A stretch of DNA of 64,000 nt from a bacterium (GCA_963662285.2 CAXXMV010000001.1:352001-416000); one strand, 5' to 3'. Shown: positions 56,902 to 64,000, counted from the stretch's first letter. Translations and numbers: made by a program. Notes: generated by a model not told the origin, from the letters alone.

Positions 56902-57546
56902 TCAGATACTCCTGTTATTGACATATTTTTTAATAAATCCACTAAGAACCGGCGTTTCTTCAATTTCCTGCAACGCCTTGGTTTTGGAATATTTCGCTAA
57001 TAAAGAAGCATAAGTATCCGCCGCATCTTCCCACTGACTATTACGTATTTGGGTTTTCATTTGAGTCTTAAGACCCGCCGCCGTTATTTCATCCAACAAA
57101 GAATCAGCTTGGTTCTGCGAAATATAGATGTTATAAACCGGTTTTTCAGATTTGGCGGAGACGGGATCATAGTCGATTACCGCCTGACGGCTAGGAGTGA
57201 AATATTGCACCAACAGCAAAGCGCACACTCCAGTCACAGCCCCCATTGAGAACTGCCCCCAGTTCAGTTGCGGAATTATGAATCCCCACAAAGAACTAAT
57301 CCGCTTATCAGATTGCCTGACGACTTGGTTAATGAAATCAGGATGGGGATCAGGCGCATCAACCGTCCACGTTTGCAGCATCGACGAGGTTCGTTGATAC
57401 GCCCGCAGCTGTTCCATGCGTTCACCATCCGTCTGAAGATATTCTTCCAGCGCCAGTTTATCATCCGACGCCAACTCATCATCTATATAAGCAGAAAGAC
57501 ATTCCATCCACTCATCTTCGGTTTTTGGTATATTCCAGGACATCAT
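56902..57546 (-). CDS. Anti-sigma factor (zf-HC2-like N-terminus, one TM helix)
   Basis: ECLSAYIDDEL...LEEYL; start overlaps the sigma stop codon (ATGA). Confidence 0.8.
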   Translation of the reverse strand: MMSWNIPKTEDEWMECLSAYIDDELASDDKLALEEYLQTDGERMEQLRAYQRTSSMLQTWTVDAPDPHPDFINQVVRQSDKRISSLWGFIIPQLNWGQFSMGAVTGVCALLLVQYFTPSRQAVIDYDPVSAKSEKPVYNIYISQNQADSLLDEITAAGLKTQMKTQIRNSQWEDAADTYASLLAKYSKTKALQEIEETPVLSGFIKKYVNNRSI

Positions 57547-58103
57547 CTCACCTCGGTAATACAAGACTGCAAACGCCTTCGTAATATATCTCTGGCTTTG
57601 GCTAAACGGCTTTTCACCGTGCCGACCGGATTCCCGGTCATTTCAGCGATATCCAGATAACTAAGTTCTTCAAATTCACGCAGAATGACAATCTCCCGCA
57701 TTAGCGGCGGCAATGATAATACCGCCCCCATGATCATTCGGTTTCGTTCATCATCAAGCAATGACTCTGCTGGATTCCGGTCAGGACTGTTTAGATCAAA
57801 AGAATCATCTATCGCCACCTCAACTACTTTAGTCTTCTTACGCAACCAGCTGATGCATAGGTTCCTCACCACTACAAACAGCCACTTGCGCACCGCTTCT
57901 CCTTCAGGAACATCAGGCGGTTTTCGGCTAAAACGAAGAAAAGCTTCTTGAACCATATCCACCGCAGTTTCGTTGCTGCCTAGCATACGAAACGCAAAAC
58001 GATATAGGTCTTTATAATTCAACTGTATAGCTTGCATGCAATCTATACTCAAAATTCGCTTCTCCCAGAGATAAGTCTCGCAATTATTACCAATAACGTA
58101 CAT
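57543..58103 (-). CDS. ECF RNA polymerase sigma factor
   Basis: DMVQEAFLR, WLFVVVRN, LREFEELSYLDIA, GTVKSRL. Confidence 0.93.
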   Translation of the reverse strand: MYVIGNNCETYLWEKRILSIDCMQAIQLNYKDLYRFAFRMLGSNETAVDMVQEAFLRFSRKPPDVPEGEAVRKWLFVVVRNLCISWLRKKTKVVEVAIDDSFDLNSPDRNPAESLLDDERNRMIMGAVLSLPPLMREIVILREFEELSYLDIAEMTGNPVGTVKSRLAKARDILRRRLQSCITEVR

Positions 58104-58138
58104 TATTTTGAGAATCGCCTTAAGCTCTCATAATCATC

Positions 58139-58164
58139 TACGCAACATTTATGGGAAAGTTCGA
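58139..58164 (-). promoter_or_regulatory. Putative autoregulatory ECF promoter
   Basis: Minus strand TCGAAC-N16-CGTA, matching the AAC/CGT pattern of ECF promoters, just upstream of the sigma gene. Confidence 0.6.
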
Positions 58165-58244
58165 TTTTTTTAAAGAGGAGGGTATTAAATATTGACTACT
58201 ACACATGAGTATACAACAAACATCGATCCATCAACATGACTGAA

Positions 58245-58583
58245 TCAATCTATCAAATCATCCAACGCTTCAAAATCAGTGGAATAAATCTTGAAACTCT
58301 TGTCCAAATGAACCACGCTGAACAACTCTTTCATGTTTTCATTGGCTGCGCACAGAGCCAGTTCTCCGCCGCCGTTTAAGGTAATTTTATATGCGTCGGT
58401 TAAAGCATGCAGACCAGCGCTGCTCATATATTCAAGCCGGGAAAGATTAAGTAATACTTTTCCATCACCGTCTCCCACAGCACGATTAAGAACTCCAGAC
58501 AATTCCGATACAGACATGGAATCAACTCGTCCATGCAACTCAAGAACTTTGACGCCTGATTCGATTTTTTCAGTGTATTTCAT
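58245..58583 (-). CDS. STAS-domain anti-anti-sigma factor
   Basis: GRVD and LEYMSSAGL (phospho-Ser motif); GGAGG RBS. Confidence 0.92.
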   Translation of the reverse strand: MKYTEKIESGVKVLELHGRVDSMSVSELSGVLNRAVGDGDGKVLLNLSRLEYMSSAGLHALTDAYKITLNGGGELALCAANENMKELFSVVHLDKSFKIYSTDFEALDDLID

Positions 58584-58612
58584 AATAACGCCTCCATCAT
58601 GACAATGACAAT

Positions 58613-59746
58613 CTATTTAAAATCAATCACCATCAATGTCAAATCATCATCTGGTTCACCCGCCTGAAAATTTGCCAGATCACTATACATATTATGCATG
58701 AATTCAGCTGAATTTGAACGGCAATTACTGGATATCATTTCCTTCAGACCGTCTTTACCCAGCATTTTATCATCTTGACCTCGCGCTTCCAGAAAACCAT
58801 CAGTATACAAAATTACTCTATCACCAGAATTAACGCCTAGTGAAGTTTCATTATTATCACCAAGTATCTTCTGCGTCACGCCTACCGGAGGCGTGTGTGA
58901 AGCAATGGCTTCGAGTTCTTCTGAAGCACTACGCCACACATATATTTCGGGATGCCCCGCATTGGCGATAGTCATCATTTCATCTTCCAGATCAATAAGG
59001 AGAATCACCATCGTAACAAACATGGAAGTTTTATCAATATTACGAAGTATAAACCGGTTAAGAAGATTGAGCACATTCGAGGGAGGGCGCCGCTCCGCCA
59101 ACCGCTGTTGCAGCTGATTATGGATCAAATTCGCCGTCAGCGCCGCAGAAACGCCATGGCCGCTCACATCATACAAGGCAATGGCATACTCCTGGGGAGA
59201 ATACTGGTGAACTGTAAGATAATCGCCGCCAATTGCAATCAATGGTTCATAGCGGTAATTGATAGAGAGATACTGATTATCAACCGGCTCTGGAAGAAGG
59301 CAGCGTTGAATAGCCGCCGCATGACTCAGGTCTTCTTCTAACTGCTGTTGCTGTTCAGCAACCTTTTTTCTGATCGCGCTGCGCTCCAACACCTTCTCAA
59401 CCACTTTCATCATATAAGGCAAATCAATCGGTTTGGTAATGAAATCAGCCGCGCCATTCTTCATTGCATCAATAGCGTACTCCATTGTCCCGAAGGCCGT
59501 CATGATAACTACCGGGATATCAATTCCTCTAATGCCTTTTTCCTGTAAAAACTGTATCCCACCCATTTTGGGCATCATCAGGTCAGAAATAATCAGATCC
59601 GGTTTATGGGAGTCGAGTATCTCAAGCGCTTTTAATCCATTGTTCGCCTGAAAAACATCGAAACCTTTAAATTCAGCGAAGTCGCTTAAATTCTCTCGAA
59701 TCTCATCTTCATCATCAACAATTAAAAGAACAGTTTTTTCTTCCAT
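58613..59746 (-). CDS. Response regulator with SpoIIE/PP2C phosphatase domain
   Basis: REC domain plus IGGDY, DVSGHG, YTDG, DDLT. Confidence 0.93.
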   Translation of the reverse strand: MEEKTVLLIVDDEDEIRENLSDFAEFKGFDVFQANNGLKALEILDSHKPDLIISDLMMPKMGGIQFLQEKGIRGIDIPVVIMTAFGTMEYAIDAMKNGAADFITKPIDLPYMMKVVEKVLERSAIRKKVAEQQQQLEEDLSHAAAIQRCLLPEPVDNQYLSINYRYEPLIAIGGDYLTVHQYSPQEYAIALYDVSGHGVSAALTANLIHNQLQQRLAERRPPSNVLNLLNRFILRNIDKTSMFVTMVILLIDLEDEMMTIANAGHPEIYVWRSASEELEAIASHTPPVGVTQKILGDNNETSLGVNSGDRVILYTDGFLEARGQDDKMLGKDGLKEMISSNCRSNSAEFMHNMYSDLANFQAGEPDDDLTLMVIDFK

Positions 59747-59759
59747 TATTTTGCCACCT

Positions 59760-60131
59760 TTACACCGACTTAGCTAACATCTCTTCAACGGCTTGCCGCA
59801 TATCTTCTGGAGAATACGGTTTCAGTATGGTACGGTCTGCTCCGTACTGCTCCGCTTGAGCCAGAACTCCTCTGACCGAAGATGCGCTTACCATAGCAAC
59901 TGGTAGATCCGGTTGGATTTTTTTTATCCTTTGAAGCAATTCAAGTCCATCAATGCCTGGAAGTTGGATATCGAACAAAGCTGCATTAAAATCCTGAGAT
60001 GAAAAAAGTTTCAAAGCCTCTTCACCCGACGATGCAGCAACCACTTCATAACCAAAAAATTCTAACAGGTCACGCAGGTTCTCCCTCAACTCTTCTTCGT
60101 CATCAACAATTAAAATTTTCGCCTCAGACAT
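59760..60131 (-). CDS. Single-domain response regulator
   Basis: IVDDE, FDIQLPG, LKPY; AGGAG RBS before 60131. Confidence 0.9.
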   Translation of the reverse strand: MSEAKILIVDDEEELRENLRDLLEFFGYEVVAASSGEEALKLFSSQDFNAALFDIQLPGIDGLELLQRIKKIQPDLPVAMVSASSVRGVLAQAEQYGADRTILKPYSPEDMRQAVEEMLAKSV

Positions 60132-60321
60132 CAAATTCTCCTGATGATACGACAATAAACGAGTTTTTCATACAAACACAGTTCAAACATTAGGTTAAAA
60201 TCCTAAAAAGAAAACGAGATTGTTTTTTAATCCACAATTATTAACTGCATTCCCGCAGACAAACGATCCAAAAACAAACTCAACCTACCTGATATAGTTA
60301 TATTTACACCATAAGCAATCA

Positions 60322-62187
60322 TCATAACATACGATCATTCAAAGACGCAACTGCGATATCCAAAGATTCAATATATTGTCTTACCGCACGGCGGAAATCG
60401 GTATATGCGAAAATAAATTTGTCTTTTAATAACTGAATTGCATTAACTTTACTCTTATCGCATCTGGAGATGCAGCCGGGATCACCGAACAATAAAATCG
60501 TAGCACGTGGGGATATAGAAGTACATAATCTGAATACAACATTATAATCATTTTGTAACGTTAAAAATAATTCCAGCGATTGTTTAATAATCAGCAACGA
60601 GTTCTCATCTGAAACATCCAATACTTCCACTTGACCAATAATCCTACCTAATTCGCTGTCCAGTTTACCGCATTCATCCAACAATCCTTGCATCTCGTCA
60701 ATTACATCGCCTATCCTTCTAGTCAATGGCTCATCAAGTGATTCCAGTAAAAACGACTTATCAATCTTTGACTCTGGCAGGGATAAAATCACTTCATCAA
60801 AATCACAGAATTCCACCCCGTCAATTCGGGCGCCTTGGGTTGATGTATTAATCACACGGCCATAAGTTTTTCTAATCATCAACACCAGCGAATCCAGAAA
60901 CATTCTCAATTGCATCGAGGTTTTCACCATGGAACCATCATTGGCGACAACCTCACACATTTGTTGGATATCTCTCTTGGGAATTTTCAAATCATTTTGC
61001 ATGGCGCCATCGGCATATTGCCGTTCTCCGCAGAAAGCGAAATCCAGTCCGGTCAAAACAATCGGCGAGCAACCCAACTGACGCGCAATATGATATGCGG
61101 CATGAGCCGTCGATCCGAAAGAATCCACCGCACCCAGCGCCTTGATTGATTTCAGTTCATTGATAAAACGAATGGCATGATGGGTGAAGAAATAACTTCG
61201 CCCCCGAAATTGTCGGATAATATTTGGATGAACCGAAGGCGACGCAACCAGTACAGCCTTATCTTGTGAGATGCCATCAAAATGCCGTGCGTTCAAATCG
61301 GTAAAATCCACGCTGACAATCACATCTGCCGAGACGCCATTACACTGTAAATTCCCCAACGCCGTATCTACCGCAATAATTAGCGACTGGGCTTGAATTG
61401 ACCTGATCTTTTCAACGCTCTCCTGCAAACCCGGCCCCGGCCCGACCACCAGCGCTGGAATCCCCGGCGCGGCATTCAGCAGACGAAGAAATGGAGCTCC
61501 ATCCAGCATCGCGCCTAGATTGGAAACGCAGTTTCTTAAAACAAAACTGCCCTGCGCCGCCATAGTCCTCAACTTAATCGATTCTCTTTGCGCAACTTTT
61601 TGAAGAGCCTTTTTCAAATCAGCTATATATTCATGATACTGTTTCATGCTTGCCATGACGCTATGCAACTGGATTCCCATAGCCCGCATACGGTTCCCGG
61701 TAATTCCATCAAAGGGAAGCCGTACAGCCTCTTCCGGGCTGCATCCTGATACAAACCGGACACGGTGCGATTGCAGCAGTTCCGTAAAATCGACTAAATG
61801 AAAAGCAGATTTAAGAACAGCCGGATCAGGTTCAACAATCCAGATAAAGGTATCATCATCAGACAATTTATATATCGATAGGGCTTGATAACCTACGCCA
61901 ATCCCGACCAGCATAATATGCCCATGACGTAAATCCAGCCGATGCTGATGTAAAACCCATTCATCAGCTTTCTCTGTTGGATTCGTCAAATCGTCTAAAG
62001 TCATGTATCGTCCATCCGGTTGAATAAAACCCATGACCGGAGAACCATCAGCAGCATTGACATACTTGATAGCAACAGAATCCAGTTCAGTTTCACACAA
62101 GAGGCAAAACAAATCAAAATCCGAACGCCGGAGCGCATCGATATTCTCCATCCATACAGGATTATTAATACGGATTGAATTAATCAT
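60322..62187 (-). CDS. DUF115 / motility-associated factor (Maf) glycosyltransferase-like protein
   Basis: GIGVGY..IVEPD, VVGPGPGL, AVDTAL, GSTAHAA..LGCSPIVLTGLDFAF, INTSTQGARIDG. Confidence 0.82.
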   Translation of the reverse strand: MINSIRINNPVWMENIDALRRSDFDLFCLLCETELDSVAIKYVNAADGSPVMGFIQPDGRYMTLDDLTNPTEKADEWVLHQHRLDLRHGHIMLVGIGVGYQALSIYKLSDDDTFIWIVEPDPAVLKSAFHLVDFTELLQSHRVRFVSGCSPEEAVRLPFDGITGNRMRAMGIQLHSVMASMKQYHEYIADLKKALQKVAQRESIKLRTMAAQGSFVLRNCVSNLGAMLDGAPFLRLLNAAPGIPALVVGPGPGLQESVEKIRSIQAQSLIIAVDTALGNLQCNGVSADVIVSVDFTDLNARHFDGISQDKAVLVASPSVHPNIIRQFRGRSYFFTHHAIRFINELKSIKALGAVDSFGSTAHAAYHIARQLGCSPIVLTGLDFAFCGERQYADGAMQNDLKIPKRDIQQMCEVVANDGSMVKTSMQLRMFLDSLVLMIRKTYGRVINTSTQGARIDGVEFCDFDEVILSLPESKIDKSFLLESLDEPLTRRIGDVIDEMQGLLDECGKLDSELGRIIGQVEVLDVSDENSLLIIKQSLELFLTLQNDYNVVFRLCTSISPRATILLFGDPGCISRCDKSKVNAIQLLKDKFIFAYTDFRRAVRQYIESLDIAVASLNDRML

Positions 62188-62262
62188 ATATCTCTACATC
62201 AGTCGTTTAGTGGTTATTAAAACAAACGTTCATTAAGGCAAGTATCCACCATAAAACTAAAT

Positions 62263-62302
62263 AAAAAAAGGGACTATCGAAACAGCCTGTTCGATAATCC
62301 CT
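62263..62302 (-). terminator. Rho-independent terminator
   Basis: Minus strand AGGGATTATCGAACAGGCTGTTTCGATAGTCCCT followed by U6; a G-U pair favours the minus strand. Confidence 0.8.
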
Positions 62303-62620
62303 ATAAAAAGGTTTGTTGCTTATTCTTAAAGCGATAACCCTGGTCAGATAAAAAAGGGGGGTTTTTTAACGATCAGCGCTTAATTGTATGAAGATTCTGC
62401 TGGCGGATGGTTATATCTCCACAGAACCTCATTACATTTTTTGTGTATGCTTGATCACGACCAGAGTTATCGGAAAAATATCATGATTCCCATTTACTAT
62501 TATTTATCAATAAAAACGCGGCTAACCAGCGCAAAAAACACGTAGTTTCCCCTGACTCCAAAAGCGGAATTGCCGAACCGCCTACGTCTTCTTTTCAATG
62601 GCTAACCGCTTAATCAACTT
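62263..62620 (-). ncRNA. Candidate structured non-coding RNA (two long stem domains), family unassigned
   Basis: Long imperfect stems at 62518-62609 and 62321-62480 whose mismatches are mostly G-U on the minus strand; no convincing ORF; ends at a terminator. Confidence 0.5.
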
Positions 62621-62707
62621 TTCAATTGAATAGAGCTGTTCTTACAATATGTTCATTTATAATCACTATAATATGAACGTTATTGAACAAATCTTAATAT
62701 GCCTTAC

Positions 62708-62722
62708 ACAAAGAACATACCA
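62708..62722 (-). promoter_or_regulatory. Candidate sigma-54 (-24/-12) promoter
   Basis: Minus strand TGGTATG-TTCT-TTGT versus consensus TGGCACG-N4-TTGC. Confidence 0.45.
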
Positions 62723-62809
62723 ATTCCTGACTAGATCATAAAAAGGCACATAAGAGTTTTGAAAATAAAGATTTATATTTTAGTTATACTTGAAGAGATA
62801 CTCTGAAAG

Positions 62810-62859
62810 GGTTGCATTTTGCACCTGTAATCAACAATTAGAGTCGCATAATTGCTACT
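62810..62859. promoter_or_regulatory. Two candidate enhancer (UAS) palindromes for the adjacent activator
   Basis: GGTTGCATTTTGCACC (62810-62825) and AGTCGCATAATTGCTACT (62842-62859), about 90-135 bp upstream of the -24/-12 element. Confidence 0.5.
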
Positions 62860-64000
62860 CCACTCTACGTTTAGAGCGTCCATCTTCGGGGGGAAGTTGT
62901 ATATCTAACGATGCGATTTTTCTGAAAAGAGTACTCTTATGGATGCCAAGTTCCCGTGCAGCAGCCAGTCTATTCCAATTATTACGCTTCAAGGCGCTGA
63001 CAATCATACGCTGCTCCATCTGTTTTATCGTTGTTGGAATACCCTGCAAACCAGCCTCGAACTCATCAGGTCTTAAATATTCAGGAAGATGCCTCATATC
63101 GATTAAACTGCCTTGGCAGAGCACAAATGCATGCTCAATGATATTCTCTAATTCACGGATATTTCCGGGATAATCATGATTTACCATTACATACAACGCC
63201 GAATGGTCGATCTCCATGATCTCTTTATTCTTCAATTGATTAAAATGGGCGATAAAATTATCTATCAACAAAGGAATATCATCTTTGCGTTCGCGCAAAG
63301 GGGGAAGATATAAGCGAATAACGTTAATACGATAATACAGGTCTTGCCTAAATGATTCCGCTTCAACCAGTTTTATTAAATTTTTATTGGTGGCGGCAAC
63401 GATGCGCACATCCGCCTTCACGGTCTGAGTCGCGCCAAGTGGTTCATATTTCTTCTCTTGCAGCACTCGCAACAATCTGACTTGAAGAGCAGGAGAGATA
63501 TCACCTATTTCATCTAAAAAGAGAGTCCCGCCTTCGGCCAAAGCAAAACGGCCCGGTTTATCTCTCTTCGCATCAGTAAAGGCGCCGGCTTTATACCCGA
63601 AGAGTTCCGATTCCAACAAAGTATCCGGTAAAGCGCCGCAATTAACTGCGATAAATGGTTTATTCTTGCGTGGGCTTAAATTATGAATTGCGCGGGCGAA
63701 CAGTTCTTTTCCCGTTCCACTTTCTCCCTCAATCAATGTAGTACTTTCGCTGTTCGCAATCTCCGGCAATATTTCAAATAACTGCTGCATACGGTGATTC
63801 TTGCTGATGATATCATTGAAACTATATTTCTTCATCAACTCTTTATGCAGTTCTTCAACCTGGCTCAAATCACGAAAAGTCTCAACTCCACCAATAATCA
63901 CGCCATCTTTATCTTTCAATAGAGCAGTGGATATACTAATCGGTATACGATCACCATTGGCGTCAATAATATATACAGTCTTATTGGCTATAGGTTGACC
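62855..64000 (-). CDS. PAS-domain sigma-54-dependent Fis-family activator (OrpR-like), 5' partial
   Basis: Frame open to the window end; GESGTGKE, ESELFG, GAFTDA, FLDEIGD, YPGNIREL, C-terminal HTH. Confidence 0.93.
   Translation of the reverse strand, partial: GQPIANKTVYIIDANGDRIPISISTALLKDKDGVIIGGVETFRDLSQVEELHKELMKKYSFNDIISKNHRMQQLFEILPEIANSESTTLIEGESGTGKELFARAIHNLSPRKNKPFIAVNCGALPDTLLESELFGYKAGAFTDAKRDKPGRFALAEGGTLFLDEIGDISPALQVRLLRVLQEKKYEPLGATQTVKADVRIVAATNKNLIKLVEAESFRQDLYYRINVIRLYLPPLRERKDDIPLLIDNFIAHFNQLKNKEIMEIDHSALYVMVNHDYPGNIRELENIIEHAFVLCQGSLIDMRHLPEYLRPDEFEAGLQGIPTTIKQMEQRMIVSALKRNNWNRLAAARELGIHKSTLFRKIASLDIQLPPEDGRSKRRVE

Follow-up and report, generated by a model that had tools for sequence, protein, structure and literature searches.

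A candidate OrpR- and sigma-54-dependent regulatory RNA in the gap between a redox-type activator gene and a maf gene

Downstream of a gene for an OrpR-type sigma-54 activator, the minus strand of positions 62263-62620 of the window (the whole 64,000-nt stretch of bacterial DNA that was analyzed) folds into a multidomain structure that, with a probability of about one half, is the body of a redox-controlled small RNA dependent on OrpR and sigma-54, laid out like crcZ/cbrB and pxr/nla19. Judged from its sequence, the stretch most likely encodes a lineage-specific regulatory RNA. Demonstrable in the DNA itself are the type of the activator, the activator box and promoter with the spacing conserved between them, the lack of an ORF, the folded structure, and the terminator. 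In the mechanism that we propose, the adjacent activator, bound at a box 102 nt upstream, would switch on a sigma-54 promoter, and a transcript of approximately 434 nt, running from about 62696 to 62263 on the minus strand, would end at an intrinsic terminator 75 nt before a maf gene. Because the OrpR protein of Desulfovibrio is active only at low redox potential, the RNA would be produced alongside the orp operon when conditions are reducing, and it would act in trans as a free-standing regulatory RNA. The features of the locus are as follows.

62855..64000, minus strand: gene for the OrpR-type sigma-54 activator (PAS, AAA+, and HTH_8 by Pfam); the window holds its 3' 381 codons of 463 aa
62844..62857, minus strand: putative distal activator box TAGCAATTATGCGA, degenerate in sequence, with a 4-nt instead of a 3-nt spacer, overlapping the stop codon
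62812..62824, minus strand: proximal OrpR-type box GTGCAAAATGCAA, with 9 of the 10 consensus positions of TTGCA-N3-TGCAA
62708..62723, minus strand: sigma-54 -24/-12 promoter TTGGTATGTTCTTTGT, by sequence pattern
62694..62698, minus strand: predicted transcription start at about 62696, placed at the usual 12-nt distance from the -12 element
62640..62685, minus strand: 5' hairpin (AACGUUCAUAUUAUA / UAUAAAUGAACAUAUU) in the MFE and centroid folds of the 434-nt transcript
62518..62609, minus strand: domain 1, by folding a 92-nt extended hairpin of 33 pairs including 6 G-U, then GUUUUU
62481..62517, minus strand: A/U-rich linker with AAUAAUAGUAAA (four A-R-N triplets)
62321..62480, minus strand: domain 2, a three-way structure of 160 nt built on a 14-bp basal stem, with an A-rich internal loop and a long apical stem
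62308..62317, minus strand: 3' half of a predicted closing helix, pairing with nt +2 to +11 (62695-62686)
62262..62302, minus strand: intrinsic terminator with a 13-bp stem, an 8-nt loop, and a U7 tract (-18.3 kcal/mol, z -5.8)
60322..62187, minus strand: next gene (maf), for a 621-aa MptE-like (former DUF115) Maf-type protein (PF01973 at 1.2e-33)

The activator gene extends past the window to G000:C1:416246. Its product matched the Pfam families Sigma54_activat (2.3e-70), AAA_lid_14, and HTH_8, and its AAA+ loop reads GAFTDA, the motif with which DVU2106 is listed in an earlier survey (PMC4641369). The PAS domain carries C61-x8-C70-x3-C74 with D63; the Cys triad was invariant in 43 of 43 orthologues, and the residue at position 63 was acidic (D/E) in 42 of them. 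In OrpR of D. vulgaris, C52/C61/C65 and D/E54 are reported to hold a redox-sensitive [4Fe-4S] cluster, and it is through this cluster in the PAS domain that the Desulfovibrio protein is reported to be active only at low redox potential (PMC8359166). By this sequence pattern, compared with the published descriptions, the upstream gene is an OrpR-type [4Fe-4S]/PAS sigma-54 activator. Orthologues with 58-71% identity were found at E<=1e-100 in 18 of the 25 other genomes of the order as well as on metagenome contigs, and RpoN is encoded in the genome.

The loci of these orthologues gave us a template for the control region. Within approximately the first 150 nt past the activator stop, they carry TTGCA-N3-TGCAA boxes and a -24/-12 promoter driving an orp (NifX-like) operon, and the half-sites of the two boxes are arranged as in the published OrpR site of DvH, GGGCGYRTTTTGCGCCC (PMC8359166). 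The promoter was located 137-142 nt past the activator stop in eight loci of the family. The proximal box was 101-103 nt 5' of the promoter TGG in L042, L044, L045, L046, L053, and L060, and 112-115 nt 5' of it in five metagenome loci, while the distal box, TTGCA-N3-TGC(A/G)A, stood 133-136 nt before the promoter. From the promoter TGG to the first orp-like gene, which belongs to the Nitro_FeMo-Co family, the distance was 28-31 nt in seven loci, 38-54 nt in another seven, and 488 nt in one (L042).

The same signals are present behind the activator gene studied here. The box GTGCAAAATGCAA begins 102 nt upstream of the promoter TGG and has the half-site layout of GGGCGYRTTTTGCGCCC of DvH; the promoter TTGGTATGTTCTTTGT lies 133 nt past the activator stop and is nearly identical to TTGGTATGTTTCTTGA of L044. 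Its -12 element reads GT, not GC, and the orp promoter of this genome likewise ends in TGT. Although TAGCAATTATGCGA matches the consensus weakly, its position, which is that of the distal box in the orthologues, suggests that it may be the distal box. No orp genes stand directly behind TTGGTATGTTCTTTGT in this genome; its orp operon begins at C1:592244, 176 kb from the activator gene, and comprises genes for four Nitro_FeMo-Co proteins, an ARMT1-like protein, and two MinD-type Fe-S ATPases. A separate box stands 103 nt ahead of the promoter of this operon, and the ATG follows 29 nt further on. Control of an orp operon, with its Nitro_FeMo-Co/MTH1175-like proteins and MinD-type Fe-S ATPases, by an adjacent OrpR-type activator is the layout of the orthologues, whereas here the operon is remote, and since it lies 176 kb off with a box and promoter of its own, the promoter retained beside the activator gene points into the folded stretch.

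Across the 7.29-Mb genome, seven places combined the promoter pattern with a box no further than 220 nt away, and only two of the seven, the present locus and the orp operon, had the 101-103 nt spacing between box and promoter. The activator-side and orp-side control regions have nothing in common beyond the box; because they have otherwise diverged, the activator-side copy of box and promoter is old yet intact. A decayed orp gene behind the promoter was rejected, as similarity to the orp operon was limited to the box and no translated similarity was found in the genome. At the level of sequence, these elements of a sigma-54-dependent sRNA gene beside a bEBP gene are present: the promoter, a box about 100 nt upstream, an ORF-less body, and a terminator. 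The conserved DNA signals point to redox-gated synthesis via OrpR and sigma-54, in which case the promoter would fire and the RNA would accumulate.

Two orthologous loci departed from the common layout. In L042 (genome G011), a 48-nt unit is repeated 4.7 times (96% matches; positions 1033-1255) within the 488 nt of non-coding leader that separate the first orp-like gene from the OrpR-type sigma-54 promoter; Rfam gave no match in this leader, and L042 is a second lineage with long non-coding sequence behind a promoter of this type. In L045 (genome G014), the expected orp1 start, approximately 174 nt past the activator stop, is followed by three codons and then a stop, and the contig ends 294 nt past the activator gene; here as well, the orp locus may be disrupted or rearranged.

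The gap behind the activator gene is 667 nt long on the minus strand, from the activator stop (62855-62857) to the ATG of maf (62187), which lies 75 nt past the U tract of the terminator and has an in-frame stop 6 nt 5' of it. The preliminary description had placed the stretch on the minus strand, 3' of the sigma-54 activator gene, and had seen no convincing ORF in it, and we agree on both points: an ORF scan, a translated search, and a Pfam search revealed no credible ORF anywhere in the gap. A small protein encoded by the 53-aa plus-strand ORF at 62384-62545 or the 32-aa minus-strand ORF at 62500-62598 is hardly probable at all. Both frames are open; however, both start with TTG, neither matched a Pfam family (best E 0.019, below the cut-off), and no translated similarity was found within the genome. 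The 53-aa frame had no relative in the 34 other genomes of the phylum; the 32-aa frame was compared against Pfam alone.

Searches of the genome and of plasmid and phage collections revealed no remnants of a gene or of a mobile element in the stretch, and the plasmid and phage collections contained no match to it. The stretch is single-copy in the genome except for one 34-nt look-alike, which ruled out a repeat or mobile element. The look-alike concerns the 5' region of the predicted RNA: the segment 62633-62666 recurs with 88% identity (E 1.8e-4) at G000:C8:1605811-1605844 (L002 1501-1534), about 25-60 nt upstream of an ORF that, from its first residues, may encode an ECF sigma factor. The gene cluster in the window likewise ends in an ECF-type sigma gene.

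We examined the fold of 62263-62620 by comparison with dinucleotide shuffles (n=100). The minus strand reached -108.0 kcal/mol against -81.3 +/- 4.8 for the shuffles (z -5.58), and not one of the 100 shuffles was as good, so that the stretch passed the comparison proposed with the preliminary description; the plus strand gave -82.1 kcal/mol (z -2.01), and 2 of its 100 shuffles did equally well. Upstream of 62620, the gap folded no better than shuffles (z -0.3). All helices named in the preliminary description were recovered in both the MFE and centroid folds of the minus strand, that is, the closing and inner stems of domain 1 and, in domain 2, the 14-bp basal stem, the GAUCA/UGAUC stem, the A-rich internal loop, the long apical stem, and the A6-C6-U6 side hairpin, whose C6 loop (62356-62361) had an unpaired probability of 1.0. 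The terminator that it had placed after the stretch is real as well, with its 13 pairs, 8-nt loop, and U-run.

Its further claim that most imperfect pairs are G-U only on this strand held for one of the two domains. In domain 1, the minus strand folded at -38.3 kcal/mol (z -4.7; 0 of 200 shuffles as good) and the plus strand at -18.4 kcal/mol (z -0.5; 62 of 200), an asymmetry that agrees in direction with promoter and terminator; by eye, its three 1x1 mismatches are U-C, A-G, and G-G, and none is A-C. In domain 2, with 200 shuffles for each strand, the minus strand gave -44.2 kcal/mol (z -5.2) and the plus strand -44.3 kcal/mol (z -3.3), and strand asymmetry was therefore absent.

If transcription begins near 62696, as is likely from the position of the promoter, the RNA starts 76 nt before the 5' end given in the preliminary description. 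The predicted 434-nt RNA (about 62696 to 62263, minus strand) folded at -126.3 kcal/mol (z -5.94; 0 of 100 shuffles), and in both the MFE and centroid folds the order of its parts was the 5' hairpin, domain 1, the linker, domain 2, the closing helix formed with nt +2 to +11, and the terminator. The closing helix, of 6+3 pairs in the MFE and centroid folds of 62263-62696, has modest support.

Against the background of the genome, 2 of 4423 random 92-nt windows showed a strand asymmetry of 19.9 kcal/mol or more, and 17 of the 4423 had a best-strand energy of -38.3 kcal/mol or lower. For the whole 358 nt, 4 of 552 random windows had a GC-adjusted energy residual as low as the observed -28.4 (z -2.87), which is about the top 1%, so that a few such windows would be expected by energy alone in a 64-kb scan. 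As the energy alone could arise by chance in a scan of 64 kb on two strands, the case rests on the combined features.

No known RNA family accounted for the stretch. The search of Rfam that had been suggested as a check found no family at gathering score in the stretch; in the whole window, the sole match at gathering score was one tRNA elsewhere, and the single match at E<=10 inside the stretch paired the terminator hairpin with a plastid 3' UTR model (19.4 vs 55.8 bits). The 6S-like shape attributed to domain 2 was not borne out: RF00013, for which at least 46.4 bits to the covariance model are called for, gave no match at E<=10 in 60000-64000, and the canonical 6S RNA of the genome was found elsewhere, at G000:C2:1539357-1539540 (66.3 bits). 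Domain 2 does resemble 6S RNA in its similar size and in its long irregular helix with an internal loop, but its junction is three-way and its loop small and asymmetric, in contrast to the large central bubble of 6S RNA.

We searched for homologues of the RNA by several routes among genomes that included one of the genus and 35 of the sparsely sampled phylum. BLAST of the 667-nt gap against 61 genomes returned only matches of 23-34 nt. Two single-sequence models, R1 and R2, which are weak at this divergence, gave at best 18.5 bits (E 0.72) in genomes of the family, no match with either model in the 34 other genomes of the phylum, and no credible match in 71 fetched loci (best 18.7 bits over 51 nt). 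Among 80 of the 302 metagenome relatives retrieved with the activator as the query, none exceeded 70% identity and none carried the RNA. An exact-stem pattern run over the genome contigs gave 18 matches, approximately the number expected by chance, the best of which were GCGGTTAGCC tandem repeats in Sporosarcina. Because orp genes occupy the locus in the relatives, an RNA at this place would be lineage-specific.

These results also feed the reading that the stretch is inert junction DNA, which we regard as unlikely while giving it appreciable weight. A lineage-specific rearrangement would have split the activator gene from the orp operon and left a promoter copy facing functionless DNA; any transcript would be a by-product or a long 3' UTR of the activator mRNA, and the fold an outlier of the scan. 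The neighborhood is indeed unique to this genome, with an activator or receiver gene within 1.5 kb at 0 of 29 maf loci, the orthologues have orp genes directly behind the promoter, and no search route found an RNA homologue; moreover, the fold energy, at about the top 1% of genomic windows (4 of 552), is not extreme, domain 2 is strand-symmetric, and the distal box has decayed. However, the exact spacing between box and promoter has been kept although the two control copies have otherwise diverged beyond recognition, a strong terminator stands at the end of the folded part, the asymmetry of domain 1 was matched by few windows (2 of 4423) and agrees with the direction of transcription, and neither a decayed gene nor a mobile element could be traced. 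A history joining these observations is possible, though on balance doubtful: the RNA may have been born at the rearrangement junction, where the orp operon left with a copy of the control region and the remaining promoter captured unrelated DNA, from which a 434-nt RNA of three domains was then shaped. An OrpR regulon would thereby gain its first RNA member, made at low redox only, and the origin of an sRNA by promoter capture would have a dated example.

The preliminary description had also considered an attenuating leader for the DUF115 gene. In such an arrangement, which we judge improbable, the sigma-54 promoter would serve a long 5' leader of the maf operon, including the partner-switching and ECF-sigma genes behind maf, and the terminator would act as a conditional attenuator, giving way once a protein or ligand binds the folded domains. 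The stretch shares its strand with maf and ends 75 nt from its start, a scan for promoters of the sigma-70 type found none in the 75-nt spacer, the arms of the domain 2 basal stem and of the terminator share CGAUAA/UUAUCG cores that can cross-pair, and the orthologous L042 has its 488-nt non-coding leader behind a like promoter. On the other hand, the cross-pairings are weak (-10.7 and -11.7 kcal/mol, against -22.6 kcal/mol for each of the native helices, the terminator and the domain 2 basal stem), and the terminator persisted when the 5' arm of domain 2 was blocked. No Rfam riboswitch or cis-regulatory leader family was matched, and the maf orthologues and paralogues examined are without such a region: neither R1 nor R2 matched in the 23 maf loci of relatives and paralogues among the 71 loci, and none of the 29 maf loci elsewhere in this or other genomes had an activator gene or a downstream receiver gene within 1.5 kb. 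The promoter scan was for the sigma-70 type only, so maf may have a promoter of its own of another type; inspection by eye found no shared motif upstream of 11 maf paralogues that could be one, and a sigma-28-like CCGATAA in domain 2 is, by eye, at the wrong spacing to TAAA. The proposal of an attenuating leader is thus weakened, as no competitive antiterminator was found and the maf orthologues examined lack the upstream region, although a protein may still mediate read-through into maf. Taken together, the weak cross-pairing, the persistent terminator, the absence of a riboswitch match, and the maf loci without the RNA favor a free-standing terminated RNA.

A division of the stretch into two small transcripts is very improbable. 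In that case, a first RNA, initiated at the sigma-54 promoter, would end after about 185 nt with domain 1 and its GUUUUU, and a unit of about 215 nt, domain 2 with the terminator, would start from a sigma-70-like site at 62510-62483. There is a U-run after the stem of domain 1 and a TTGATA-16-AATCAT match at 62510-62483; however, the match holds 9 of 12 positions, five such sites occurred in the region against 3.9 expected in shuffles, and domain 1 is a long interrupted hairpin that was not called as a terminator.

The arrangement that we favor, an sRNA gene directly behind its own sigma-54 activator gene, is already known from other bacteria. Qrr1 stands beside luxO, and glmY beside glrK-glrR. 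The CrcZ RNA of Pseudomonas is about 400 nt long. Like the present candidate, it is a long ORF-less RNA directly behind its own sigma-54 activator gene, with a promoter in the gap and a terminator before an unrelated gene. The crcZ gene, downstream of cbrB, is reported to be transcribed from the promoter there and also by read-through of the activator mRNA (PMC5113210). The stretch nevertheless has no sequence or Rfam match to CrcZ, the repeated A-rich Hfq/Crc motifs are not clear in it (one AANAANAA, P 0.27), its activator is a one-component Fe-S redox sensor and not a two-component response regulator such as CbrB, and CrcZ is conserved across a genus, whereas the present candidate is known from one genome. 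The Myxococcus sRNA Pxr is likewise encoded in the gap after a sigma-54-dependent regulator gene, nla19, behind a predicted sigma-54 promoter, and has a multi-stem-loop fold (PMC5568312). Pxr differs in its length of 108 nt (PMC5568312), in its conservation among myxobacteria, in having a known phenotype, and in showing no homology to the stretch.

With the OrpR regulon of DvH, the present locus shares an activator with the Cys triad and GAFTDA, a palindromic box of equal half-site layout, and sigma-54 promoters adjoining the activator gene. The difference is that the promoter by the activator gene here faces a non-coding stretch, with the orp operon 176 kb off. The DvH OrpR regulon is reported to consist of two protein-coding orp operons only (PMC8359166), and the sigma-54 regulome of DvH to include four non-coding RNAs (PMC4641369). 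A literature search for OrpR with small RNA found no RNA under OrpR.

If the RNA is real, it would add an RNA output to a redox-sensing sigma-54 regulator that has two protein operons only in the one organism studied, and it would provide an example of how an sRNA gene originates, in which the promoter and enhancer site are kept and the genes behind them are swapped for non-coding DNA. Its reach is narrow, since it comes from one genome only, in a sparsely sampled phylum represented by 35 genomes.

As to what such an RNA would do, action in trans is suggested by analogy with the known systems, and we can only guess that it base-pairs through the C6 loop or the A/U-rich linker with Hfq. Genes for Hfq and CsrA are both present in the genome. 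The predicted RNA contains (ARN)x3 six times, against 1.7 times in shuffles (P 0.018), and (ARN)x4 once (P 0.21), which is weak evidence. A CsrA/RsmA-sequestering sRNA was rejected, because the RNA holds five GGA against 5.2 expected and these are mostly paired (unpaired probability 0.00-0.32). We also rejected antisense control of orp1. The 5' hairpin has a 13-nt complementarity to the orp1 start region that is not significant; the 13-bp helix (62682-62670) was equalled by 300 of 4113 start regions and its 10 Watson-Crick pairs by 196 of 4113, and the duplex energy ranked 339 of 2500, a poor measure that permits long loops. Thus, neither the orp1 complementarity nor the GGA counts nor the A-R-N runs indicated a target or protein partner.

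A post hoc observation concerns the first nine bases of orp1 (G000:C1:592245), which occur twice in the gap, at 62681-62673 as the reverse complement in the 5' hairpin and at 62233-62225 in the sense orientation in the spacer that separates the terminator from maf; with 35+39 copies in the 7.29 Mb of the genome, two within 667 nt are unexpected. Furthermore, MptE-like/Maf-type proteins are strongly expanded in this family: this genome gave 12 matches, and each of 19 other genomes between 6 and 12. In the window, maf is followed on its 3' side, at 56902-60155 on the minus strand, by a set of genes in the style of partner switching, for a receiver protein, a receiver-PP2C (SpoIIE) phosphatase, a STAS protein, and an ECF-type sigma factor, and a 220-aa ORF after the last of these may, from a reading of its start, encode an anti-sigma factor.
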